In this document: positions 44,156-60,632 of the stretch, in pieces | Numbering within the stretch: the first letter of the stretch is position 1 | How the letters are laid out: each line of letters opens with the position of its first letter | Program-made: the position numbers and the translations under genes | The notes under the pieces: model-generated | What the model saw: only the letters and a program-made list of their open reading frames with translations | The model's database searches: none | What the model was told of the DNA's origin: nothing | Origin: an uncultured Allorhizobium sp. | Lineage (GTDB): Bacteria > Pseudomonadota > Alphaproteobacteria > Rhizobiales > Rhizobiaceae | DNA: 64,000 bases | Direction of reading: 5' to 3' | Assembly: GCA_958439205.1 (NCBI GenBank) | Contig: OY288189.1 | Span: 511,960-575,959, forward strand

Positions 44156-44554
44156 TTAGTCCAAAGCCTTCAGCGCCTTGTCGAAGACCTTCAGAACCTG
44201 GCGGAGGTCATGCCCACGCTTGAGTATCCGTCCGTCCGTGCCGACCACGGAGAAGGCGCCCTGCTTGGCTGCGAGTTTCGGGTTCTTCTCGATCCGGTAC
44301 AGCGGATATTCGCCCGATCGCTTAAAGACGGAGAACACTGCCTTGTCCTTCAAGTGATCGATCGCGTAGTCGCGCCACTCGCCTTCTCCGACCATGCGGC
44401 CGTAGATCCAGAGAATGGCGTCGAGTTCGCGACGATGGAAGGTGACGGGTAGAGGGTCGAGCGATTGTCTGTAGACACCCAGGTCGACAACGGGAGTGGC
44501 GCTTCTGTCTGCACCCTCGTCGTCGCGGCGCTGCCCTTCCGGCTGCTCTGTCAT
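44156..44554 (-). CDS. DUF2794 family protein
   Basis: VTFHRRELDAILWIYGRMVGEGEWRDYAID, PLYRIEK, GHDLRQVL. Confidence 0.88.
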   Translation of the reverse strand: MTEQPEGQRRDDEGADRSATPVVDLGVYRQSLDPLPVTFHRRELDAILWIYGRMVGEGEWRDYAIDHLKDKAVFSVFKRSGEYPLYRIEKNPKLAAKQGAFSVVGTDGRILKRGHDLRQVLKVFDKALKALD

Positions 44555-44657
44555 CAATGCTCCACGAGCTCCGATTCATGACGGATGGGTGACAGTGTGC
44601 CTGACATGCCCGAAATTGCAAGCTTCGACGGGCAGGCTCTGTCCGGAGCTGCCCTCC

Positions 44658-45596
44658 TTAGCGGCTTCGGCTGAGGAAGTGGCCAAGCAAAAGTTCGCGC
44701 AGGCGTGCTGCGATCGGCGACAGTCGTTTACCGCTTAGCGTGATGAGGTGATACGGCGTCACCTCGATCGGTGTGTCCAGCCTGAGCGTCGTCAGATCGC
44801 CGACCGGCGTCTGGCGACAGAGAAGGTCCGAAACTTCCCGCGACATCGGCGCGATCGCGTTCGACGAGGCAAGCATGGCAATCATCACCAGAAGCGAGGT
44901 CGTGTTGACGATGTTGCGCGGGATCGGGGCGCCTTCCTCGATGAAGACATTCTCGACCGCCTGACGCAGAGGCGTGCCGGGGGCCTGCATCACCCAGGGG
45001 AAATGCGTCATGTCCGAAATGTTCAGCCGGTCGACATTGACCAGGGGATGGCTGCGGTGGACGACGATCTCCACTTCTTCCATGGTCGCCCCTTCGACAT
45101 GAAACTGCCTTGCGTCGATGCCCGCGGGGATACGCCCCAGGACAAAGTCGTACTGGCCAGACAGTAGGTCCCGGATCATTTCGCCGCTGGGGGCGACGTC
45201 GACGTGGATGTCGACGGTCGAGGCTTCTGCCTTCAGGGCGCGAATGGCCGGAACGACGTGACCGACGGCGCCGCCCGTGACGGCGCCGATCCTGACCTTG
45301 CCGGTCAAACCCCGCTGGATGGCTTCGACTTCTCTTGCCGCTTCGCGCATTTCCTCAAGAACGTTCAAAGCCCGGCGGGCAAGCGCGCTGCCGACAGCCG
45401 TGGGCTCCATGCCCTTCGGCGTGCGGACGAAAATCGGCGAGCCGACATAGCGCTCAATTTCCCCCAACATGCGGGAAGCCGCAGGCTGTGTCAGCGCAAG
45501 TGCCTGAGCGGCCAAGCTTAATTGACCAAGCTCCGCGATGGAGCGGATCAGGTTCAAATGCTTGGGCTGCAATCGGTGGATATGAATCTCGGCCAT
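44658..45596 (-). CDS. gbpR: LysR-type regulator (GbpR-like), divergent from chvE
   Basis: LTQPAASRML HTH, VRIGAV, PRNIVNTTS; classic gbpR/chvE divergent layout. Confidence 0.8.
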   Translation of the reverse strand: MAEIHIHRLQPKHLNLIRSIAELGQLSLAAQALALTQPAASRMLGEIERYVGSPIFVRTPKGMEPTAVGSALARRALNVLEEMREAAREVEAIQRGLTGKVRIGAVTGGAVGHVVPAIRALKAEASTVDIHVDVAPSGEMIRDLLSGQYDFVLGRIPAGIDARQFHVEGATMEEVEIVVHRSHPLVNVDRLNISDMTHFPWVMQAPGTPLRQAVENVFIEEGAPIPRNIVNTTSLLVMIAMLASSNAIAPMSREVSDLLCRQTPVGDLTTLRLDTPIEVTPYHLITLSGKRLSPIAARLRELLLGHFLSRSR

Positions 45597-45603
45597 TAAG
45601 CAC

Positions 45604-45619
45604 ATATCAACTACGGTAT
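45604..45619. promoter_or_regulatory. Candidate GbpR operator (ATA-N10-TAT)
   Basis: CATATC-AACTAC-GGTATG inverted repeat 8 bp upstream of the gbpR start. Confidence 0.5.
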
Positions 45620-45767
45620 GCAGAAAGTCAAAATAATCATTTGATCGGTATATTGGCCACGATAAGACTCGCCACGGAGCTGGGGGCTGCCGTGTCAGCC
45701 GTCCGTTCTTGTTTCAGCGAGTGCCAGGAGGAGCTTGGCCTCGCACGGTATGACCAGGGAGGTTACC

Positions 45768-46838
45768 ATGAAGAAACTTGGCGCCCTGATTGCGTCGCTC
45801 GCAATCGGCATCGCATCATTCGCGCCCATGTCCTACGCACAGGACAAGGGTATGGTCGGCATTTCCATGCCGACGAAGACGTCGACCCGTTGGATCTCGG
45901 ACGGCGAGACAATGGAAAAGCTGTTCACGGAAGCCGGCTACACCCCGGACCTGCAGTTTGCTGACGACGATATCCCGAACCAGCTCGCCCAGATCGAAAA
46001 CATGGTCACCAAGGGTGCCAAGGTTCTCGTCATCGGCGCCATCGACGGCACCACGCTTTCCGACATCCTGCAGAAGGCTGCCGATGCTGGCGTCAAGGTC
46101 ATCGCTTATGACCGCCTGATCCGCGATTCCGGCAACGTCGACTACTACGCCACCTTCGACAACTTCCAGGTTGGCGTTCTCCAGGCAACCAGCCTCGTTG
46201 ACGGCCTCAAGGCGAAGTTCCCGGACACCAAGCCGTGGAACGTCGAACTCTTCGGCGGTTCGCCGGACGACAACAACGCCTTCTTCTTCTACGATGGCGC
46301 AATGTCTGTTCTGCAGCCCCTGATCGACAGCGGCGACATCGTCGTCAAGTCGGGCCAGATGGGCATGGACCAGGTTGGTACGCTGCGTTGGGACGGCACT
46401 GTCGCCCAGGCTCGTATGGAAAACCTGCTCTCCTCGACCTACACCGAAGACAAGCTGCACGGCGCTCTTTCGCCGTATGACGGTCTCTCGATCGGTATCC
46501 TGTCCGCTCTGAAGGGCGTTGGCTACGGTTCGGGCGATATGGTCATGCCGGTTGTTACCGGTCAGGACGCCGAGCTTCCTTCGATCAAGTCGATGCTTGC
46601 CGACGAGCAGTACTCGACCGTGTTCAAGGACACCCGCGAACTCGCCAAGGTCGCTGTTTCCATGGTTGACGCGATCATGGGCGGCAAGGCTCCGGAGATC
46701 AACGACGAGAAGACCTACAACAACGGTGTGAAGGTCGTTCCGTCCTACCTGCTGAAGCCTGTCGCTCTCGACAAGGCCAATGCCAAGGAAGTTCTCGTCG
46801 GCGCCGGCTACTACACCGCCGAGCAGATCGACAACTGA
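45768..46838 (+). CDS. chvE: Multiple-sugar ABC transporter periplasmic binding protein (ChvE/SbpA family)
   Basis: Signal peptide; [63 protein letters not shown]. Confidence 0.9.
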
Positions 46839-46855
46839 TCCTTCGGATCGCATCC

Positions 46856-46879
46856 GGGTCCGCGACATGTCGCGGACCC
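46856..46879. repeat. Perfect 24-bp palindrome in the chvE-gguA spacer
   Basis: GGGTCCGCGACATGTCGCGGACCC is its own reverse complement. Confidence 0.9.
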
Positions 46880-46958
46880 ATTTTCTATACGCATTGAGGG
46901 AGCTCGCGCCTCCAGCTGGATCTTTCGGGATCGCTGGCCTGGCGCCGGAATTCTGCAC

Positions 46959-48494
46959 ATGGACAACATCATTCTCGAGATGCGCGGCATCACAAAGACA
47001 TTTCCCGGCGTGAAAGCGCTGGACAATGTCAGCTTCAAGGTGCGCGAGGGCGAGATCCACGCGCTGGTCGGCGAAAATGGCGCCGGCAAGTCTACGCTGA
47101 TGAAGGTCCTGAGCGGTGTCTATCCCGCTGGCACCTATGACGGCGACATCTTCTACGACGGAGAAGTCCGTCGCTTCGGCCGGATCTCCGACAGCGAAGA
47201 GCTCGGCATCATCATCATTCACCAGGAACTGGCGCTCGTGCCGCTCCTGTCGATCGCCGAGAACATCTTCCTCGGCAATGAAATCGCCCAGAACGGCGTG
47301 ATCCACTGGCCCCAGACATTTGCGCGGACGAAAGAGCTGCTGGCAAAGGTCGGCCTGAAGGACGCGCCGTCGACACGCATCACCGACATCGGTGTCGGCA
47401 AGCAGCAGCTGGTAGAAATCGCCAAGGCCCTGTCGAAGAAGGTTCGCCTGTTGATCCTCGACGAGCCGACCGCTTCTCTGAACGAAACGGATTCGGACGC
47501 GCTGCTGACGCTGCTCATGGAGTTCCGCAAGCAGGGGATGACCTCGATCATCATCTCCCACAAGCTGAACGAAATCCGCAAGGTTGCTGACCAGATCACC
47601 ATCCTTCGTGACGGCGGCACCGTCGAAACGCTCGACTGTCACACCCAGGAGATCACGGAAGACCGGATCATCAAGGGCATGGTCGGCCGTGACATGGAAG
47701 ACCGCTACCCGAAGCGCGACCCCAAGATTGGCGACGTCCTGCTTGAGGTGAAGAATTGGAACGTCTTCCACCAGAACCACCGCGACCGTCAGTTCCTGCA
47801 CGATGTCGCCTTCAATGTCCGCGCCGGCGAAGTCGTTGGCATCGCGGGCCTGATGGGTGCCGGGCGTACAGAGACGGCGATGAGCATTTTTGGCAAGTCC
47901 TGGGGTCACAAGATCACGGGTGACGTCTCGATGCATGGGAAGCCGGTCGATGTTTCGACGATCCCGAAGGCGATCGAGGCCGGTCTTGCCTATGTGACGG
48001 AAGACCGGAAACATCTCGGTCTCGTGCTGCAGAACAACATCAAGGAAAACACCACGCTCGCCAATCTCGACGGCGTTTCCAGCGGCACGATCATCGATGA
48101 CCGCAAGGAAGCCAAGGTGGCGTCCGACTATCGCCAGAAGCTCCGGATCCGGTCGCACTCGATCTACCAGGAGGCCGTGAACCTCTCCGGTGGCAACCAG
48201 CAGAAGGTTGTTCTGTCGAAGTGGCTGTTCACGAACCCTGAGATCCTGATCCTCGACGAGCCGACGCGCGGCATCGACGTCGGGGCGAAGTTTGAAATCT
48301 ACACCATCATCAACCAGCTTGCCGCCGAAGGTAAGGGCATTCTGATGATCTCGTCGGAAATGCCCGAACTGCTCGGCACCTGCGACCGCATCTACGTCAT
48401 GAACGAAGGACGCATCGTCGCGGAACTGTCCAAGGAAGAAGCAAGCCAAGAGTCCATCATGCGTGCCATCATGCGCTCTGGGGAGAAACACTAA
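46959..48494 (+). CDS. gguA: Sugar ABC transporter ATP-binding protein (GguA/MmsA)
   Basis: [14 protein letters not shown] twice, LSGGNQQKV; double NBD. Confidence 0.93.
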
Positions 48495-49705
48495 TGGCTA
48501 TCGACACAAGAACCGAAACCCCCAAGGTCTCCGTAGGCGACTATCTGCGCAACAACATCCGCGAATACGGACTGCTGCTCGCGCTCGTCGTCATCATGCT
48601 GTTGTTCCAGTTCCTGACCAACGGCGTTCTTTTCCGTCCGGTCAACATCACCAACCTGGTGCTGCAGAACTCGTTCATCGTTATCATGGCGCTCGGCATG
48701 TTGCTGATCATCGTGGCGGGGCACATTGACCTGTCGGTCGGCTCGATCGTCGCCTTCATCGGCGGCATATCGGCGATCATGCTGGTTAAATGGGGCTGGC
48801 ATTTCTCGCTGGTCGTGCCGCTGTGTCTGGTGCTCGGTGGCGTCATGGGTGCTGCCCAGGGTTACTGGGTCGCCTATCAGAAGATCCCGTCCTTCATCGT
48901 GACGCTCGCCGGCATGCTGGTTTTCCGCGGCCTGACCTATGTCGTGCTCCAGGGTCGCCCGATCGGTCCCTTCCCGAAGGAATTCACGCTGCTGTCGACC
49001 GGCTTCATCCCGGACTTCCTGCCGCTGACAGATGTCGCGACCACCGGCATCGCCAACCACGTTGCCATCATTCTGATTGTGCTGCTTGTCGGTATGGCGA
49101 TCTATAACGGCATGAAAAACCGCCGCCTGAACGAAGAGCACGGCACCGAAAACGAACCCTTCGTGTTCTTCGCCGTACAGATGGGCATCATCAGCGCTGT
49201 TGCTATCTTCCTCGGCTATCAGCTCGCCACCTATCGCGGCCTGCCGAACGTGCTCGTCGTCATGGGCGTTCTCATCGCGCTTTATTCCTTCGTCACCACC
49301 CGCACCACGATCGGTCGCCGCATCTATGCGCTGGGTGGCAATGAAAAGGCTGCGAAGCTTTCCGGCATCAATACCGAAAAGCTGGTGTTCCTGACCTTCG
49401 TCAACATGGGTGTGCTCGCAGCTCTCGCCGGCATGATCATCGCGGCTCGCCTCAATTCGGCGACACCGAAGGCGGGCGTCGGCTTCGAGCTCGACGTTAT
49501 CGCGGCCTGCTTCATCGGCGGTGCCTCGGCGTCCGGCGGCGTTGGCAAGATCACCGGTGCTGTCATCGGCGCCTTTATCATGGGTGTCATGAACAACGGC
49601 ATGTCGATCATGGGTATCGGCATCGACTACCAGCAGCTCATCAAGGGCCTCGTGCTTTTGGCTGCTGTCTTCTTCGACGTTTACAACAAGAACAAAGCAG
49701 TCTGA
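48494..49705 (+). CDS. gguB: Sugar ABC transporter permease (GguB/MmsB)
   Basis: IDLSVGS, IPSFIVTLAGM, GRRIYALGGNEKAAKLSGI, FELDVIAACFIGG. Confidence 0.93.
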   Translation: MAIDTRTETPKVSVGDYLRNNIREYGLLLALVVIMLLFQFLTNGVLFRPVNITNLVLQNSFIVIMALGMLLIIVAGHIDLSVGSIVAFIGGISAIMLVKWGWHFSLVVPLCLVLGGVMGAAQGYWVAYQKIPSFIVTLAGMLVFRGLTYVVLQGRPIGPFPKEFTLLSTGFIPDFLPLTDVATTGIANHVAIILIVLLVGMAIYNGMKNRRLNEEHGTENEPFVFFAVQMGIISAVAIFLGYQLATYRGLPNVLVVMGVLIALYSFVTTRTTIGRRIYALGGNEKAAKLSGINTEKLVFLTFVNMGVLAALAGMIIAARLNSATPKAGVGFELDVIAACFIGGASASGGVGKITGAVIGAFIMGVMNNGMSIMGIGIDYQQLIKGLVLLAAVFFDVYNKNKAV

Positions 49706-49715
49706 GGATAGGCTT

Positions 49716-50681
49716 ATGTTTCTCTCGCAATTGAAGACTGGCGGCGTCATCTGCCGCCAGGGTGAGGCCGCGCGCCTTGTCCCAGGTTACAAGACAACTT
49801 ACGAACTCGCAAAGGCAGCGATTGCTGCCGGCACTGACGTAGCGACCCTCATCGAGAAGCAGGGTGCTGGCGATGCCGTCGATCTCATTGCTCTGGCGGC
49901 CGAAGGCAAGCTTGACTGCCCCGTGCGTCATCCGGATCCGGCTCACATGTACCTGACGGGTACAGGCCTGACGCATACCGGGTCGGCATCCGCCCGTGAC
50001 AGCATGCATGCGGATACGGCTGGCATGAGCGATTCGATGAAGATGTTCCGCATGGGCATGGAAGGCGGCAAGCCGAAGCCCGGCGAAATCGGCGTTCAGC
50101 CGGAGTGGTTCTACAAGGGCAACGGCTTCAACGCGGTTGCACCTGGCGAAGATCTCGTCTCGCCATCCTTCGCGCTCGATGGTGGTGAAGAGCCGGAAAT
50201 GGCTGGCTACTACATCATCGGCGAGGACGGCACCGCGCATCGCCTCGGCTTCTCCGTGGCCAACGAATTCTCCGACCACGTGACCGAGAAGATCAACTAC
50301 CTCTTCCTCGCACACTCCAAGCTGCGTCCGGCCTCCTTCGGTCCGGAACTGCGTGTCGGCGCTCTGCCCGACCACGTCGAAGGCATTTCGCGCATCGTGC
50401 GCGCTGGCCAGACCGTCTGGGAAAAGCCGTTCCTCTCGGGTGAGGCCAACATGTCCCACACGATCGCAAACCTGGAGTATCACCACTTCAAGTATGCGCT
50501 GTTCTGCCAGCCTGGCGATCTGCATGTCCACATGTACGGCACAGCGACGCTGTCCGTCGCGGATGGATTCGTCACGCAGGAAGGCGATGTCTTCGAAATC
50601 GAGTCCCCGCAATTCGGTCTCCCACTGCGCAACCGCCTGGCAAAGGCTGCCGCAGAGACCGTTAAGGTGAAGATGCTCTGA
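49716..50681 (+). CDS. araD1: AraD1/GguC family FAH-fold protein (probable 2-keto-3-deoxy-pentonate dehydratase)
   Basis: TGTGLTH, QPEWFYKGNG, DGGEEPE, NEFSDHVTE, AHSKLR; directly after gguB. Confidence 0.85.
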   Translation: MFLSQLKTGGVICRQGEAARLVPGYKTTYELAKAAIAAGTDVATLIEKQGAGDAVDLIALAAEGKLDCPVRHPDPAHMYLTGTGLTHTGSASARDSMHADTAGMSDSMKMFRMGMEGGKPKPGEIGVQPEWFYKGNGFNAVAPGEDLVSPSFALDGGEEPEMAGYYIIGEDGTAHRLGFSVANEFSDHVTEKINYLFLAHSKLRPASFGPELRVGALPDHVEGISRIVRAGQTVWEKPFLSGEANMSHTIANLEYHHFKYALFCQPGDLHVHMYGTATLSVADGFVTQEGDVFEIESPQFGLPLRNRLAKAAAETVKVKML

Positions 50682-50730
50682 GCGGATCGGTCAACCGACC
50701 CGCCCATTTCCCAGAGACAGGACGAAAGCC

Positions 50731-52476
50731 ATGAGCAAGTTCAAACCGGCGGCTTGGCCGCGCCAACTGAGATCCCAGCACTGGTATGGCGGGACATCCC
50801 GCGACACGATCTATCATCGTGGCTGGATGAAGAACCAGGGCCACCCGCACGACCTCTTCGATGGTCGCCCGGTCATCGGTATCCTGAATACCTGGTCCGA
50901 CCTCACCCCATGCAACGGCCACCTGCGTGAGCTCGCTGAAAAGGTGAAGGCTGGCGTCTGGGAAGCTGGTGGTTTCCCGGTCGAGATCCCGGTTTTCTCG
51001 GCTTCCGAAAACACCTTCCGCCCGACGGCGATGATGTACCGCAACCTTGCGGCACTGGCCGTCGAAGAAGCTATGCGCGGCCAGCCGATCGATGGTGCCG
51101 TGCTGCTCGTCGGCTGTGACAAGACGACCCCGTCGCTGGTCATGGCGGCTGCTTCGACCGACCTTCCGTCTATCGTCGTCACCGGTGGCCCGATGCTGAA
51201 CGGCTATTTCCGCGGCGAACGCGTCGGTTCCGGCACGCATCTCTGGAAGTTCTCCGAAGCCGTGAAGGCTGGCGAGATGACCCAGGAAGAATTCGTCGAA
51301 GCCGAAGCTTCCATGTCCCGCTCCAGCGGCACCTGCAACACCATGGGCACCGCCTCGACCATGGCGTCGATGGTTGAAGCCCTCGGCATGGCGCTCTCGG
51401 GCAACGCCGCGATCCCGGCTGTCGACAGCCGCCGCAAGGTGATGGCGCAGCTTTCGGGGCGCCGGATTGTGCAGATGGTCAAGGACGACCTGAAGCCCTC
51501 CGACATCATGACCAAGGAAGCCTTCGAGAACGCGATCCGCGTCAACGGTGCGATCGGCGGCTCGACCAATGCCGTCGTGCATATCCTGGCGATGGCCGGC
51601 CGTGTCGGCATCGATCTGACGCTCGACGACTGGGATCGCCTCGGTCGCGACATCCCGACGATCGTCAACCTGATGCCGTCGGGCAAGTATCTAATGGAAG
51701 AGTTCTTCTATGCTGGCGGTCTGCCTGTTGTCATCAAGCGTCTTGGCGAAGCTGGCAAGCTGCACAAGGATGCGCTGACCGTCTCGGGCGAAAGCATCTG
51801 GGACGAGGTCAAGGACGTTCGCAACTGGAACGAGGACGTCATCCTGCCGGTCGACAAGGCACTGACCCAGCAGGGCGGTATTGTCGTTTTGCGCGGCAAT
51901 CTCGCGCCGAAGGGCTGCGTGTTGAAGCCGTCTGCTGCTTCCGCCCACCTGATGAAGCATCGTGGCCGCGCCGTGGTCTTCGAAGACATCGACGACTACA
52001 AGGCGAAGATCAACGACGAGGCGCTCGATATCGACGAGACCTGCGTCATGGTGCTGAAGAACTGTGGTCCGCGCGGCTATCCGGGCATGGCTGAAGTCGG
52101 CAACATGGGTCTGCCGCCGAAGGTCCTGCGCAAGGGCATTACCGACATGGTCCGCATTTCGGATGCGCGCATGTCCGGCACCGCCTATGGTACCGTTCTC
52201 CTGCACACCTCGCCTGAAGCCGCACGTGGCGGACCGCTCGCGATCGTCAAGAATGGTGACTTCATCGAGCTCGATGTCGAATCGCGCCGCATTCACCTCG
52301 ATATCTCGGAAGAAGAGATGCAGCGCCGTCTCGCAGACTGGCGCCCGTCGGTTGAGCCGCCGGCCAGCGGTTACGCCCGCCTTTTCCACGATCATGTCGA
52401 AGGTGCCGATACGGGTGCCGACTTCGACTTCCTGAAGGGCTGCCGCGGTTCGCCGGTCGGCAAGGACGCACACTGA
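50731..52476 (+). CDS. araD: L-arabinonate/aldonate dehydratase (IlvD/Edd family)
   Basis: LRSQHWYGGTSRD, PCNGHL, RPTAMMYRNL, GCDKTTP, GTCNTMGTASTM, SDARMSGT; gene nomenclature varies between species. Confidence 0.9.
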   Translation: MSKFKPAAWPRQLRSQHWYGGTSRDTIYHRGWMKNQGHPHDLFDGRPVIGILNTWSDLTPCNGHLRELAEKVKAGVWEAGGFPVEIPVFSASENTFRPTAMMYRNLAALAVEEAMRGQPIDGAVLLVGCDKTTPSLVMAAASTDLPSIVVTGGPMLNGYFRGERVGSGTHLWKFSEAVKAGEMTQEEFVEAEASMSRSSGTCNTMGTASTMASMVEALGMALSGNAAIPAVDSRRKVMAQLSGRRIVQMVKDDLKPSDIMTKEAFENAIRVNGAIGGSTNAVVHILAMAGRVGIDLTLDDWDRLGRDIPTIVNLMPSGKYLMEEFFYAGGLPVVIKRLGEAGKLHKDALTVSGESIWDEVKDVRNWNEDVILPVDKALTQQGGIVVLRGNLAPKGCVLKPSAASAHLMKHRGRAVVFEDIDDYKAKINDEALDIDETCVMVLKNCGPRGYPGMAEVGNMGLPPKVLRKGITDMVRISDARMSGTAYGTVLLHTSPEAARGGPLAIVKNGDFIELDVESRRIHLDISEEEMQRRLADWRPSVEPPASGYARLFHDHVEGADTGADFDFLKGCRGSPVGKDAH

Positions 52477-52487
52477 GGACCTTGACG

Positions 52488-53417
52488 ATGTCAGATCGTA
52501 TTCCGCTCGCGCTTGTCGGCATCGGCAAGATCGCCCGCGACCAGCACATTCCGTCGATCGAAGGCGGTCAGGACTTCGTCGTTGCCGTTGGCGTCAGCCG
52601 TCACGGCAAGGTCGAGGGTGCCGAGAACTTCACCGACTTCGATGCGTTTCTGGCCGCGCGTCCTGATATCAAGGTCGTGTCGCTCTGCACCCCGCCTGAA
52701 GTGCGCTTCGACATGGCAAAGGCTGCGATTGCGGCTGGTCGCCACGTGCTGATGGAAAAGCCACCGGCGACCACCCTGGGTGAGGCAGAGGCTCTGACTG
52801 AGCTTGCGGCCAAGGCTGGTGTCACCTTGTTTGCCACCTGGCACTCGCGCTTTGCGCTGGGTGTTGAGCCCGCTCGCCAGTGGCTTTCCGATAAGGTCAT
52901 CCAGTCGATTTCGATCGTCTGGAAGGAAGACGTGCGCCGTTGGCATCCCGGCCAGGCCTGGATCTGGGAACCGGGTGGCTTCGGCGTTTTCGATCCTGGT
53001 ATCAACGCACTCTCCATCCTGACGGAGATCGTGCCTGGCCACATCATGGTGGAAAAATCCACCCTGGAGTTCCCTGAAAACAAGAAGCAGCCAATCGCCG
53101 CTTCCATCGCCATGCGGACCGTCGAAGGCGCGCCGATCACGGCCGAATTCGACTGGCGACAGGAAGGGCCGCAGACGTGGGATATCACAGTCCAGACGAA
53201 TGCCGGCGAGCTGCGTCTTTCAAAGGGCGGTTCGGAACTCTATATCGGGGGTAAGGAACAGGCGTCCGGCCCGGACCGCGAATATGCGGGAATCTACGAA
53301 CGCTTCGCCCATCTCATCCGCTCCCGCCAGAGCGATACCGACTATCAGCCGCTGCGCATCGTGGCGGATTCGTTCCTTTGCGGGGAACGTAAAGTCGTCG
53401 CTCACTTCGAAGACTGA
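52488..53417 (+). CDS. Gfo/Idh/MocA oxidoreductase (L-arabinose/D-galactose 1-dehydrogenase type)
   Basis: VGIGKIARDQH, LMEKPP, WKEDVRRWHPGQAWIW, GVFDPGINALS. Confidence 0.88.
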   Translation: MSDRIPLALVGIGKIARDQHIPSIEGGQDFVVAVGVSRHGKVEGAENFTDFDAFLAARPDIKVVSLCTPPEVRFDMAKAAIAAGRHVLMEKPPATTLGEAEALTELAAKAGVTLFATWHSRFALGVEPARQWLSDKVIQSISIVWKEDVRRWHPGQAWIWEPGGFGVFDPGINALSILTEIVPGHIMVEKSTLEFPENKKQPIAASIAMRTVEGAPITAEFDWRQEGPQTWDITVQTNAGELRLSKGGSELYIGGKEQASGPDREYAGIYERFAHLIRSRQSDTDYQPLRIVADSFLCGERKVVAHFED

Positions 53418-53438
53418 CATCAAAAGGAGGCCCATCCC

Positions 53439-54953
53439 ATGGCCTATACACCGACTGGAAAACACCTGATCGCCGGCAACTGGGTTGCCAGCACGGATAC
53501 TTTCACCTCGTCGCCTGCCACGGGCTCCTCCCACACCTTCTCGAAGGGCACCCCTGCCCTGGTCGATCAGGCGGTGAAAGCCGCCGAAGAGGCATTCGAA
53601 ACCTATGCCTATTCGACGCGCGAAGAGCGTGCCGCCTTCCTCGACGCCATCGCCGAGGAAATCGATGCACGTGGTGACGCGATCACCGAGATCGGCTCCC
53701 AGGAAACCGGTCTGCCGGAAGCACGCCTGATCGGCGAGCGCGGCCGCACCGTCGGCCAGCTTCGTCTCTTCGCGGCGCATATCCGCAAGGGCGACTATCT
53801 CGACCGCCGTCATGACGAAGCCCTGCCCGATCGCAAGCCGCTGCCACGTTCGGACCTCAGGATGGTCCAGCGTCCGATCGGCCCGGTCGCCGTCTTCGGT
53901 GCCTCCAACTTCCCCCTCGCCTTCTCCACGGCTGGTGGTGATACGGCAGCGGCACTCGCTGCTGGCTGCCCTGTCGTCGTCAAGGCGCATGATGCCCATC
54001 CGGGCACCGGTGAAATCGTCGCCTCCGCGATCGATGCTGCCATCAAGCGCTGCGGCGTGCATCCGGGCGTGTTCTCGCTCGTTCACGGCGGGAGCCGCGA
54101 CGTCGGCCAGGCACTCGTTCAGCATCCGCTGATCAAGGCTGTCGGCTTCACCGGCTCGCTCGGTGGTGGTCGCGCGCTCTTCGATCTCTGCGCGCAGCGA
54201 CCAGAACCCATCCCGTTCTTCGGCGAGCTCGGCTCGGTCAACCCGATGTTCATGCTGCCCAAGGCGATCGCCACCCGTGGCGAAGCCATTGCCAAGGGCT
54301 GGGTCGGTTCGCTGACCATGGGTGCCGGTCAGTTCTGCACCAATCCGGGTATCGTCGTGCTGCTCAAGGGCGCTGATGCGGAAAAGTATGTCGAGACAGC
54401 AACGGAAGCTCTCTCGGCCGTTGGTCCGCAGACGATGCTGACGGATGGGATTGCTGATGCCTACCGCAAGGGTGCGACCAAGATCGCCGGTACCGAAGGT
54501 GTTCGTTCGGTTCTCACCTCGACCTGCGACCTGCGCAATGCGACGCCTTACCTGTTCCAGACGACGGCCAAGGACTGGCTCGACAACCATGTGCTCGGCG
54601 AAGAAGTGTTCGGTCCGCTCGGCCTGATCGTTATCGCCGAGAGCGAAGACGAAATGGTCGCCATGGCCCGCAGCCTTTCCGGCCAGCTGACGGCTTCGAT
54701 CCATCTCGCCGATGGTGACGAGACGCTTGGCAAGCGCCTCATGCCGATCCTGGAGCGCAAGGCGGGTCGTGTGCTTGCCAACGGCTTCCCGACGGGTGTC
54801 GAAGTGGCTGATTCCATGGTTCACGGTGGCCCCTACCCGGCTTCCACGAACTTTGGCGCCACGTCTGTCGGCACGCTCTCGATCCGTCGCTTCCTGCGGC
54901 CGGTCTGCTTCCAGGATATTCCGGCGGCGCTTCTGCCGACCGATCTCGCCTGA
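53439..54953 (+). CDS. Alpha-ketoglutaric semialdehyde dehydrogenase (NADP+ aldehyde dehydrogenase)
   Basis: FGASNFPLAFS, GFTGS, ELGSVNP, GAGQFCTNPG, EEVFGP, HGGPYPAST. Confidence 0.88.
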   Translation: MAYTPTGKHLIAGNWVASTDTFTSSPATGSSHTFSKGTPALVDQAVKAAEEAFETYAYSTREERAAFLDAIAEEIDARGDAITEIGSQETGLPEARLIGERGRTVGQLRLFAAHIRKGDYLDRRHDEALPDRKPLPRSDLRMVQRPIGPVAVFGASNFPLAFSTAGGDTAAALAAGCPVVVKAHDAHPGTGEIVASAIDAAIKRCGVHPGVFSLVHGGSRDVGQALVQHPLIKAVGFTGSLGGGRALFDLCAQRPEPIPFFGELGSVNPMFMLPKAIATRGEAIAKGWVGSLTMGAGQFCTNPGIVVLLKGADAEKYVETATEALSAVGPQTMLTDGIADAYRKGATKIAGTEGVRSVLTSTCDLRNATPYLFQTTAKDWLDNHVLGEEVFGPLGLIVIAESEDEMVAMARSLSGQLTASIHLADGDETLGKRLMPILERKAGRVLANGFPTGVEVADSMVHGGPYPASTNFGATSVGTLSIRRFLRPVCFQDIPAALLPTDLA

Positions 54954-54962
54954 GGACATGCC

Positions 54963-55892
54963 GTGACGACATCACCGTTTGCCGCGCTCGTCGACTGGGG
55001 CACCAGCAACCTTCGGATCTGGCTGACCGACAGCCAGGGTGAGGTGATCGGTGAACGTCAATCTGCAGAGGGTATGGGCAGCCTCGATAAGGCTGCCTAT
55101 CCCGCCGTGCTTGAAGGGCATCTCACAGCGCTCGGTGCGCCTCCGGATCTCCCTGTGGTCATCGCCGGCATGGCGGGCGCCCGCACAGGCTGGCGCGAAG
55201 CTCCCTATGTGGAAACGCCGGCGCCGCTGGTCGGACTTTTCCAGCATGCAGTCCAGCCGGAGGGCGTCAGCCGTCCGGTCTATATCCTGCCTGGCGTCTG
55301 CCAGCGCGAGGGCGGTGCCTTTGACGTCATGCGGGGTGAGGAAACCCAGCTTGCCGGCGCCCTCGAGCAGGGCCTGGACAACGCTCTCTTCTGCCTTCCA
55401 GGCACCCATTCGAAATGGGCTCTCGTCGAGGGGGGGCAGGTTCGCAATTTTTCCACCGTGATGACGGGCGAGCTTTTCAATTTGATCAGCCGGCAGTCCA
55501 TCCTGCGCCTTTCCGTTCCCGAGGACGGTGACGCCGAGGCGGATCCTGAAATCTTCGACGCTGCCGTGCAGCAGGCGCTTGAGCCTGGATTTGCGCTGAC
55601 ATCGGTTCTCTTCTCGATCCGAGCCGAGGGCCTGCTTGCTTCGAATACGAAGATCAATCCGGCGGCGCGCCTCTCCGGTCTGCTGATCGGCGCCGAGATC
55701 GCGGCGATCCGCAAAGACCTGACGCGGTATGGCAAGGCCTACCTGATCGGTACCGGCAAGCTGACGCGTCTCTATGCCCGTGCCATCGTCCAGGCTGGCG
55801 GCGAACCGGTTCTCCTTGATGGGGGGCTGTTGGTCCGTCGCGGTCTGCTTGCCTCGGCACTCTCTCTTTTCGACCACGAATTCAAGGATTGA
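54963..55892 (+). CDS. dgoK: 2-dehydro-3-deoxygalactonokinase
   Basis: DWGTSNLR, GMAGARTGWREAPY, DVMRGEETQ, LPGTHSKW, MTGELF. Confidence 0.93.
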   Translation: MTTSPFAALVDWGTSNLRIWLTDSQGEVIGERQSAEGMGSLDKAAYPAVLEGHLTALGAPPDLPVVIAGMAGARTGWREAPYVETPAPLVGLFQHAVQPEGVSRPVYILPGVCQREGGAFDVMRGEETQLAGALEQGLDNALFCLPGTHSKWALVEGGQVRNFSTVMTGELFNLISRQSILRLSVPEDGDAEADPEIFDAAVQQALEPGFALTSVLFSIRAEGLLASNTKINPAARLSGLLIGAEIAAIRKDLTRYGKAYLIGTGKLTRLYARAIVQAGGEPVLLDGGLLVRRGLLASALSLFDHEFKD

Positions 55893-55896
55893 CCTG

Positions 55897-56529
55897 ATGA
55901 CTGCATCCGTTGCCTGGCCCGCGCTTCGCCGCAATCTTGTTGCCATCCTGCGCGGCATCAAGCCGGAGGAGATCGAAGCCGCAGTGGATGCGCTGCTGGA
56001 AGCAGGGTTCGAGGCGATCGAAGTGCCCTTGAACTCGCCCGATCCGTTCGTTTCCATCGAGAAGGCCCGCAAACTTGCACCGGCAAATGTGCTGATCGGG
56101 GCAGGGACAGTTCTCGAAGCGTCCCAGGTGGACCGGCTGAACGATGTCGGCGGCAATCTTCTGGTGACACCGAATGTCGAGCCTGATGTGATTCGCCGTG
56201 CGGTTTCGCATGGGATGGTCGCAATGCCGGGCGTCTTCACGCCGACGGAAGCTCTGCTTGCCGCCAAGTGCGGCGCTTCGGCGCTCAAGTTCTTCCCGGC
56301 TAGCGTGCTGGGCCCGAGCGGCATTTCCGCCATCAAGGCCATTCTGCCGCCGCATCTGCCTCTCGGCGCTGTCGGCGGCGTCTCCGATGCCAACTTTGCG
56401 GATTACTGGAAGGTCGGCGTTCGCGCCTTTGGCCTGGGCTCCAGCCTCTATAAGCCGGGCGATAGTGCCGCGGTCATCGGTGAGCGCGCCATCAAGAACG
56501 TTCAGGCTTACGACGCGCTCGTCGGCTGA
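55897..56529 (+). CDS. dgoA: 2-dehydro-3-deoxy-6-phosphogalactonate aldolase
   Basis: LVAILRG, EVPLNSPDP, GAGTV, LKFFPA, AVGGV; start ATG 55897. Confidence 0.93.
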   Translation: MTASVAWPALRRNLVAILRGIKPEEIEAAVDALLEAGFEAIEVPLNSPDPFVSIEKARKLAPANVLIGAGTVLEASQVDRLNDVGGNLLVTPNVEPDVIRRAVSHGMVAMPGVFTPTEALLAAKCGASALKFFPASVLGPSGISAIKAILPPHLPLGAVGGVSDANFADYWKVGVRAFGLGSSLYKPGDSAAVIGERAIKNVQAYDALVG

Positions 56530-56554: not shown

Positions 56555-56587
56555 AGGCCTGTCCGGCATCCCCCGGCCGGGCCTTTT
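56555..56587 (+). terminator. Intrinsic terminator of the sugar operon
   Basis: AGGCCTGTCCGG...CCGGCCGGGCCTTTT, an imperfect GC-rich stem with a T4 tail. Confidence 0.6.
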
Positions 56588-56700
56588 CGTTGGCTCTGCT
56601 GACGCACCGGTTGTGACAATAATCACGCTGCAAATCAGATAAACGTCGCCGCGCCCAAATTTGAACATACGTGCGCCGCTTTTTGAGATATAGTATAACT

Positions 56701-56795
56701 AACTTGGTTGGCGCGATGCGCCAAAAGGTCCGGTCTGGCGCATTGACCCCTTACCCCCAGCCCCCCAATGTTTCCAGGCCGGACCACACCAAGTT
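56701..56795 (+). ncRNA. Putative structured small RNA with C-rich apical loop (possibly PmaR/C10-like)
   Basis: Nested helices 56701-08/56788-95, 56709-14/56718-23, 56727-38/56774-85 and 56741-45/56766-70; TATAGT -10-like box at 56689-56694. Strand is inferred from that box. Confidence 0.7.
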
Positions 56796-56810
56796 TCCAG
56801 CACCCTGAAA

Positions 56811-57623
56811 TCAGAGCGTCTTTGGCGTGGTCATCATGACGGTGGCCCCGATGATTCGGGACGGATTGCCGCCCTCATCGGCAGCCTGAAGGAGAATGGC
56901 TATACCGTCGCTCTCTTCGTCGCCCATGGGCTTTGCCGGAAGCGTCAGATCAAGCGACTTTCCATCCCACATGCCAACGGTCTGAACGTCGGTCACGCTG
57001 TGCCAGTAGTTCAGGCTCTGCCCGAGGTTTTCGCCCTTGAGCACCTCGACGGTCTGGTTCTGACGGAAATAGACAACCACGACATTTGCCTTGCCGGCAC
57101 CTTTGCCGATCGTAATCGACAACTGGTCGTCGTGACGCGAGGCCTTCACCGGCACGATCAAGCCGTTTCCGCTCGACTTCATGTGGTCCAGCCGCTGATT
57201 GACCTCCGATGCGTCGGTGCCCTTCAGATGTTCACGACCATTGAGCACCGCCTGCGGGGTGTAGACCCCATTTCGACCGAAGGTCTTGGCATAGGCATAT
57301 TGCCTTGCTGTGTTTTCCTTGGTCGCCAGGGTATCGGCCCAGCCAAGGTAGTTCCAATAATCGACGTGGTAGGACAGCGCCACGACCTTGCCTTCGCGAA
57401 CGAGCTGCTCGAAAGCGCGGTCCGCAGGAGGACAGGAGCGGCATCCCTGTGAGGTGAAGAGTTCCACAACGCCCTTCGGCGTCGATGCGTCGTCAGCCTT
57501 CGCTGCAGCGCCGGAAAGGATGATGAATGGCGCGAGGACCAAAGCAATCAGCTTTGCCCTTAGCTTTCCTCGACCCGTGCTTTTGCTTGCCTGCAACATG
57601 CTGATGCGATGCCTTTTCTGCAT
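56811..57623 (-). CDS. DUF1223 thioredoxin-like secreted protein
   Basis: VELFTSQGCRSCPPAD, YHVDYWNYLGWAD, VYTPQAVLNG; start uncertain (57623 or 57599). Confidence 0.88.
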   Translation of the reverse strand: MQKRHRISMLQASKSTGRGKLRAKLIALVLAPFIILSGAAAKADDASTPKGVVELFTSQGCRSCPPADRAFEQLVREGKVVALSYHVDYWNYLGWADTLATKENTARQYAYAKTFGRNGVYTPQAVLNGREHLKGTDASEVNQRLDHMKSSGNGLIVPVKASRHDDQLSITIGKGAGKANVVVVYFRQNQTVEVLKGENLGQSLNYWHSVTDVQTVGMWDGKSLDLTLPAKPMGDEESDGIAILLQAADEGGNPSRIIGATVMMTTPKTL

Positions 57624-57708
57624 GGTGCACTTGATACTCTCTCGTGCCCTGTGCGCAAAGTCACGATGGGGTGAAATTTTGGTCAACGGTCCAATTCCGT
57701 CACCCACG

Positions 57709-57758: not shown

Positions 57759-60452
<2,694 letters not shown>

Positions 60453-60632
60453 GGATAGAAACCCCGCATATTCTGATAGCCAACACAATCGTGCGGACGC
60501 CTATGCACTTCATGCACATCAGGATGCGGGTACGACCATTTCCGCTGTCCGCCCGTGAAAATCGCTCCTCGCGATGTCCAAGTTCGGCACAAGGATGAAC
60601 TTCACGCCGGCCGCTGGCGTGGTTGCAGGTCT

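Follow-up and report, generated by a model that had tools for sequence, protein, structure and literature searches.

Between the dgoK-dgoA operon and a convergent gene for a DUF1223 protein, the window analysed here (the whole stretch of DNA, 64 kb in length) contains a region that folds into a compact structure with a C-rich apical loop, raising the question of whether this region is a small RNA (sRNA) gene in its own right and, if so, to which family it belongs. The answer that we favour, and in which we have good confidence, is that 56700-56795(+) constitutes a stand-alone gene whose product, an sRNA of ~95 nt, acts in trans and is the orthologue of PmaR in the Allorhizobium/Peteryoungia/Ciceribacter clade. 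PmaR belongs to the small set of alphaproteobacterial sRNAs whose role has been worked out, and at this locus its gene would stand in another genus, with a different fold, missed both by the Rfam cut-off and by genome annotation.

Position of the element and gene order at the locus

The coordinates of the element and its neighbours are collected in Table 1. The upstream dgoK-dgoA operon ends in a terminator of its own, as the first-pass annotation of this DNA had stated, formed by a hairpin at 56561-82 plus a T-tract. A reading of the element as the 3′ UTR or terminator of dgoA was rejected, since dgoA already has its terminator and other genes stand upstream in relatives. Downstream, the next genes are convergent and there is no + strand gene, so the element is not a leader. 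The first of the convergent genes has its stop codon only 15 nt from P1, the closing stem of the element, and encodes a DUF1223 protein for which PDB 2AXO ('hypothetical protein Atu2684') is a match with 6e-87. By protein homology this gene is the orthologue of Atu2684 and of SrlA of S. meliloti. Atu2684 has been named as a structural homologue of SrlA (SMc03845), a thioredoxin-fold protein of S. meliloti that acts in salt and oxidative-stress/peroxide tolerance and is under CenK-CenR control (PMC9561847).

Table 1 Features of the sRNA locus, in window coordinates
Feature	Position	Strand	Remarks
DUF2794 gene, usual divergent neighbour of the sRNA	44156..44557	-	here 12 kb off; Pfam 7e-40; tblastn
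Intrinsic terminator of the upstream dgoK-dgoA operon	56561..56592	+	hairpin 56561-82 plus T-tract
Conserved promoter block	56653..56685	+	33 bp; two GCC-N2-3-(A/T)TTT elements 22 bp apart flanking TTTGAACATAC
-10-like TATAGT	56689..56694	+	read in the sequence
Predicted sRNA, putative PmaR orthologue, ~95 nt	56700..56795	+	5′ end by homology; 3′ end inferred from P1
P1 5′ arm, AACUUGGU	56701..56708	+	MFE fold
P2 hairpin UGGCGC-GAU-GCGCCA	56709..56723	+	arms 56709-14 / 56718-23
P3, long GC-rich hairpin bearing the C-rich loop	56727..56785	+	part common to PmaR and BjrC174 model positions 88-151
P3a, GGUCCGGUCUGG / CCAGGCCGGACC	56727-38 / 56774-85	+	one G-U
P3b, GCAUUG / CAAUGU	56740-45 / 56766-71	+	
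Apical loop, 20 nt, ACCCCUUACCCCCAGCCCCC	56746..56765	+	presumed seed
P1 3′ arm, ACCAAGUU, then UCC	56788..56795	+	MFE fold; stands where Agrobacterium has the terminator hairpin
DUF1223 thioredoxin-fold protein, convergent neighbour	56811..57707	-	Pfam DUF1223 2e-63; PDB 2AXO 6e-87
acnA (aconitase), syntenic anchor	57759..60488	-	

The gene order in an Agrobacterium-type genome is Bax1-I, DUF2794(-), sRNA(+), DUF1223(-), acnA(-). DUF1223 is convergent downstream in 16/16 loci tested (at least 10 genera), with acnA next in all 16, and DUF2794 stands upstream in 14 of the 16 Rhizobiaceae loci. When compared to the PmaR locus, which runs from DUF2794 to Atu2684/DUF1223 beside acnA, the window is identical on the downstream side, and its DUF2794 gene is present and displaced by 12 kb. 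The sRNA itself is a single-copy gene in its own 4.53-Mb genome.

A sugar-acid catabolic block of ~12 kb, at window positions 44658-56529, separates the DUF2794 gene from the sRNA promoter. It encodes a LysR regulator, a sugar ABC transporter (periplasmic-binding protein, ATPase, and permease), an IlvD/Edd-type dehydratase, a GFO/IDH/MocA oxidoreductase, an aldehyde dehydrogenase, DgoK, and a KDPGal-type aldolase (dgoA). The block looks like an inserted island, because in most relatives the sRNA promoter lies next to DUF2794.

Predicted fold of the element

The first-pass annotation had proposed a three-way junction, and all of the helices it named are present in the sequence and together make up the minimum free energy (MFE) structure returned by RNAfold for 56701-56800(+). 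This structure has a folding energy of -46.4 kcal/mol compared to a mean of -26.3 +/- 3.3 kcal/mol for dinucleotide shuffles (z = -6.17), none of the 200 shuffles being as stable, and the junction was also kept when the element was folded in a 160-nt context. In the predicted RNA, P1 would join the 5′ and 3′ ends, P2 would form a short GC hairpin, and P3 would present the 20-nt C-rich loop.

A structure lying this close to the DUF1223 stop codon might instead serve mainly as a terminator, possibly a bidirectional one, for the minus-strand transcript of the srlA-like DUF1223 gene and acnA, with the + strand RNA being incidental. The reverse complement does fold, at -44.3 kcal/mol, and moderately U-rich sequence comes after it. 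That minus-strand fold is, however, weak against its shuffles (z = -2.4) and is lost in longer context, where the strand refolds differently. A terminator would also need neither an invariant 14-nt loop nor a conserved promoter block on the opposite strand, and the orthologue in Agrobacterium is a proven + strand sRNA. We therefore consider a role mainly in termination to be very unlikely, and return to the reading of the element as an sRNA gene.

On the + strand, no canonical terminator follows P1 in the window, where the U-tract is only UUU (UUUCC). Many relatives have a U-rich stretch after the 3′ arm of P1 (UUUUC, UUCUUUUCC), and the tails vary. We infer 3′-end formation from P1, which probably defines and protects the 3′ end, either through weak intrinsic termination or as a stop to exonucleolytic trimming.

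Covariation and coding potential

A covariance model, R1, was built from 23 sequences with the three-way-junction structure and was used to align 56 loci; the window RNA scores 116 bits on it. In this alignment of 55 distinct homologues, which was fitted to the structure and hence leans towards it, 93.7% of the cells hold pairs and 21 of the 32 pairs are changed on both sides. By helix, such changes were seen in 8/8 pairs of P1, 4/6 of P2, and 9/18 of P3, the cells of P3 being 98.6% paired. None of 500 shuffles reached any of these measures, and in slid controls at most 45% of the cells were paired. The same compensations in P1 were recovered when its arms were read from independent single-sequence folds, with the arm pairs differing by lineage: AACUUGG with CCAAGUU or CCAGGUU, CUCUUGG/CCAAGAG, UCUUCAG/CUGAAGA, CUGAG/CUCAG, CCGG/CCGG, and AUCGGUUGG/CCGACCGAU. 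A few homologues are without P1. RNAalifold missed P1 because a plain MAFFT alignment had put its 3′ arm in the wrong place, and the covariance-model alignment was used instead.

These substitutions also bear on whether the region encodes a small protein, for which there are two reading frames, one of 45 aa on the + strand (56671-56808) and one of 50 aa on the minus strand (56635-56787). The strand, frame, and limits of ORFs over the element shift among the 25 members of the genus, and two of these close relatives have no such ORF. Indels of 1 and 2 nt are found in the junctions and the loop among relatives, and the substitutions in the helices are compensatory. A coding function is thus hardly credible.

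Match to Rfam and relationship to PmaR

The whole 64-kb window gave no match to Rfam at gathering thresholds. When the cmscan comparison suggested by the first-pass annotation was run with an E-value threshold, the sole meaningful match of the element was to RF02497 (Atu_C10), the full model (1-89) aligning to window positions 56700-56790 with 42.7 bits, where the cut-off is 60 (E = 3.2e-7). With a score under that cut-off, the gene would be passed over in annotation. No Rfam match up to E 10 was obtained for the alpha-r14/NfeR1 and CcsR/cuckoo families.

PmaR, 'formerly C10', of A. tumefaciens C58 is expressed and has been structure-probed, revealing a long stem and an accessible C-rich loop; it lies between two hypothetical genes and is induced in stationary phase and at pH 5.5 (PMC6234868). 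It acts in trans, mostly activating its targets, with a role in peptidoglycan synthesis, motility, and AmpC-mediated ampicillin resistance, and it binds murB and ampC RNA directly in vitro, as seen in band shifts (PMC6234868). Changing nt 58-61 from CCCA to UUUU abolished regulation of all nine targets, and the loop is explicitly described as not anti-SD (PMC6234868).

The earlier guess that PmaR may lie in this neighbourhood agrees with the Atu_C10 match, the C-rich loop, the promoter block, and the synteny. The window element and PmaR share a long GC-rich hairpin and an almost identical C-rich loop with the CCCA-G needed for regulation, as well as the upstream promoter block, the locus beside Atu2684/DUF1223-acnA, and a similar start position and core length. 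The nearly identical loop, the common promoter block, and the shared locus establish orthology with Agrobacterium PmaR despite the low Atu_C10 score, and the element is a real, well-supported sRNA gene.

The two RNAs differ in that the 5′ hairpin is UGGCGC/GCGCCA in the window whereas in Agrobacterium it is GUCA..UGAC enclosing UUGAUGCC, and in that P1 of the window ties the 5′ end to the 3′ end in a three-way junction, with no separate terminator hairpin. The host genus of the window also lies outside the published range of PmaR, and the Atu_C10 score lies under the cut-off. Folding of 93 unique homologues revealed two designs. In the Agrobacterium design, a local 5′ hairpin (GUCA/UGAC) and the C-loop hairpin are followed further 3′ by a separate, variable GC-rich hairpin, while the window and most of Allorhizobium/Peteryoungia/Ciceribacter have a 5′ hairpin UUGGCGC/GCGCCAA and the closing stem, without a further hairpin. 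The pairs that the Atu_C10 model makes between positions 3-6 and 28-31 are non-canonical in the window according to cmscan, the 5′ end of the window RNA pairing with its 3′ end instead. The three-way junction is a variant of the Agrobacterium architecture and is not identical to it.

A conserved promoter block upstream of the element

Upstream of the element lies a block, GCC..ATTT.G..CAAA.CA..GCC..A.TT, that was found at fixed spacing upstream of 119/119 homologues examined, including those of Agrobacterium. There it covers approximately -47 to -17 relative to the mapped PmaR start and is followed by AATAGT 5 nt before +1, the +1 being put at UUGUCAAUUG on the basis of where the Rfam model starts and of the PmaR numbering, in which G62 is a loop base. 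The covariance-model alignment places position 1 of Atu_C10 at window position 56700. A start at 56701 set by a TATAGT box had been proposed in the first-pass annotation; the box is present and homology puts the start at ~56700/56701, but a consensus scan upstream of the element found no sigma-70-type -35/-10 pair and no -35 hexamer. With no sigma-70 consensus match, the promoter is predicted from homology. Transcription of the element in its host would probably start at 56700/56701, driven by the non-canonical block at 56653-56685 together with the TATAGT box. The locus points in this way to a conserved, non-canonical promoter. No further copies of the block were found in the genome, and a CenR motif (TGA-N8-TGA or an AgTCAC..GTgAct repeat) was not seen in the block when read by eye.

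Distribution in the Rhizobiaceae

Atu_C10 matches were present in all 25 genomes of the GTDB genus of the window (Allorhizobium/Peteryoungia/Ciceribacter), at 30-52 bits and all under the cut-off. Among 151 Rhizobiaceae genomes, Atu_C10 scored over the cut-off in only 2 genomes of one genus, at 106-117 bits and with the Agrobacterium sequence, and in 16 genomes from other families of the order it gave no match. An exact-pattern scan of named genomes found the loop in Agrobacterium species, Allorhizobium vitis, A. undicola, A. taibaishanense, Ciceribacter species, Peteryoungia aggregata, P. ipomoeae, Rhizobium rosettiformans, and many 'Rhizobium sp.' strains. The window RNA is identical to the copy in an Allorhizobium sp. 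MAG and nearly so to that of Rhizobium sp. TH135. With R1, matches were found in 14/151 Rhizobiaceae genomes (12/135 genera), the weaker of them lying at the same locus. Two of the weaker matches (L145 and L146) share the promoter block; in others the loop is CCCUCAGCCCCAGCCCCUC and the 5′ part is longer, the hairpin of one such match scoring 37 bits on BjrC174.

The published range of PmaR is 'Agrobacterium species and Rhizobium sp. IRBG74' (PMC6234868), and it has been described as a recent invention confined to Agrobacterium. The distribution of these homologues shows that predicted PmaR-type RNAs are far more widespread than the literature says. A form of intermediate type and greater length, in which a UCGUUGCC motif precedes the hairpin on its 5′ side, is found in some Rhizobiaceae (L031, L147-L150).

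BjrC174 and relatives across the order

A second Rfam family, RF02355 (BjrC174), aligned to the window with its hairpin only (model positions 88-151), at 17.4 bits and E = 0.63 for a 201-nt model with a cut-off of 45, and was not found in the genome at E 0.01. Bradyrhizobium japonicum makes BjrC174 as an abundant sRNA from a strong promoter with neither RpoD nor RpoN consensus (PMC4842269). It resembles the window RNA in its central hairpin (88-151), with a GGnCCGGUCC-type stem and a CAGCCCCCCAGCCCCCC (CAGCCCC-type) loop, in a promoter outside the RpoD/RpoN consensus, and in relatives that lie beside a divergent DUF2794 gene and sometimes DUF1223 and acnA. It differs in its length of ~200 nt with its own 5′ domain and terminator, and outside the hairpin the two RNAs are not confidently alignable.

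Searching the order with BjrC174 gave matches in 43/121 genomes (34/91 genera), 5 of them over the cut-off. Among 20 of these loci that were fetched (L159-L178), which come from many families of the order, DUF2794 adjoins in 17 and DUF1223 is found in 3; acnA is also present at the Bradyrhizobium-type locus. The loop in the BjrC174-type loci reads UCAGCCCCCCAGCCCCCC, and the stems covary.

The neighbours of these relatives also speak to a possible action in cis, in which the RNA would extend by read-through over the 3′ end of the srlA-like gene, convergent with it, and act as an antisense RNA on the mRNA of that gene. This would fit the conservation of the convergent DUF1223 gene in every Rhizobiaceae locus tested (16/16), the gap of 15 nt, and the lack of a strong terminator after P1 in the window. 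It does not fit the separate terminator hairpin that follows the sRNA in Agrobacterium or the published targets, which are regulated in trans, and across the order the relatives have DUF2794 as their anchor more commonly than DUF1223. Antisense action on the srlA-like mRNA is for these reasons quite improbable, and action in trans is the preferred reading.

The hairpin and loop seen across the order, the adjacency to DUF2794, and the non-consensus promoter argue for common descent of the two Rfam families. We lean towards the view that PmaR/Atu_C10 and BjrC174 are diverged forms of one ancient Rhizobiales (Hyphomicrobiales) sRNA gene, anchored to DUF2794 and often convergent with srlA/DUF1223-acnA, in which the CCCCAGCCCC loop stayed nearly invariant and the promoter, an unusual one, was kept, while the scaffold was rebuilt in each lineage into hairpins in tandem, a three-way junction, or a 200-nt form. 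If this is true, the published idea of PmaR as a recent invention of Agrobacterium is wrong. The homologue set (12/135 Rhizobiaceae genera plus the order-wide BjrC174-type loci) allows a better covariance model or an Rfam clan to be built, as well as comparative target prediction over many genera and a test of ancestral targets.

Atu_C10 and BjrC174 are at present in no Rfam clan, though apparently related. In Bradyrhizobium BjrC174 (L159), a box like the promoter block apparently falls within the transcribed region, in its 5′ part at +20 to +70, which is at odds with the upstream position of the block in Agrobacterium.

The C-rich loop and its possible targets

Compared with the Agrobacterium loop, ACCCUUUACCCCCAGCCCC, that of the window RNA, ACCCCUUACCCCCAGCCCCC, has a single U-to-C change and an additional C, and CCCA-G is retained. 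The CCCA that precedes G in the window loop is the tetranucleotide that was mutated in A. tumefaciens. Across the 25 genomes of the genus, which were found by covariance model, the core of the loop, UUACCCCCAG, is invariant, as is most of the next C-run, while P1 and P2 vary, an invariance that is partly an artefact because detection by model or pattern favours conserved loops.

The first-pass annotation had read the loop as a seed that pairs with G-rich or SD sequences. The seed part of that proposal fits the homology to PmaR, but pairing with SD sequences is wrong for the PmaR loop, the targets of which are mostly activated. The anti-SD motif CCUCCUCCC is absent from 56700-56795, as is CCUCC. 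The CCUCCUCCC anti-SD sRNAs of alphaproteobacteria resemble the window RNA in being stand-alone and in using C-rich hairpin loops as seeds. The most likely role of the loop, following what has been shown for PmaR, is to pair with G-rich stretches in the 5′ UTRs or coding regions of several mRNAs, and such pairing would change mRNA stability or translation.

Pairing was scanned as the duplex energy of the loop against the region from -200 to +100 of each of 3561 ORFs; the energies included no accessibility term, and the gene starts were approximate. In this crude scan the murB leader had a rank fraction of 0.15 and the best leader of a class-C-like beta-lactamase (ampC-like) one of 0.65 among the 3561. 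Since neither leader is outstanding, conservation of the Agrobacterium targets is unsupported by the scan. This result, together with a loop that stays invariant across genera over 14 nt, more than a short seed needs, would be compatible with an RNA that mainly binds or titrates a protein recognising the C-rich loop instead of pairing with mRNAs. Against this stand the binding of PmaR to murB and ampC RNAs and the loss of regulation of nine targets upon a 4-nt change in the loop, and there is no candidate for the protein partner. We regard protein titration as unlikely, though less so than the alternatives discussed above, and mRNA pairing in trans as the preferred mode of action.

The longest perfect complements of the loop in the genome are 11-13 nt and of the GGGGCUGGGGG type, the strongest being those of 13 nt and of the GGGGGCUGGGGG type, such as the ones at 3207230(+) and 3295841(+). 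Candidate target sites lie at genome positions 3207230-3207266(+), 3295841-3295877(+), 4405966-4406001(-), and 4092934-4092968(+), the first of these at about +48 of a 759-aa ORF. The duplex ranking was dominated by a repeated intergenic element, CUUCUCCCCGC(C/U)UGCGGGG, that lies 70-170 nt upstream of several ORFs, with examples upstream of genome positions 2713434, 2714739, 1577990, 3598841, and 1573676. This repeat is probably REP-like and unrelated to the sRNA.
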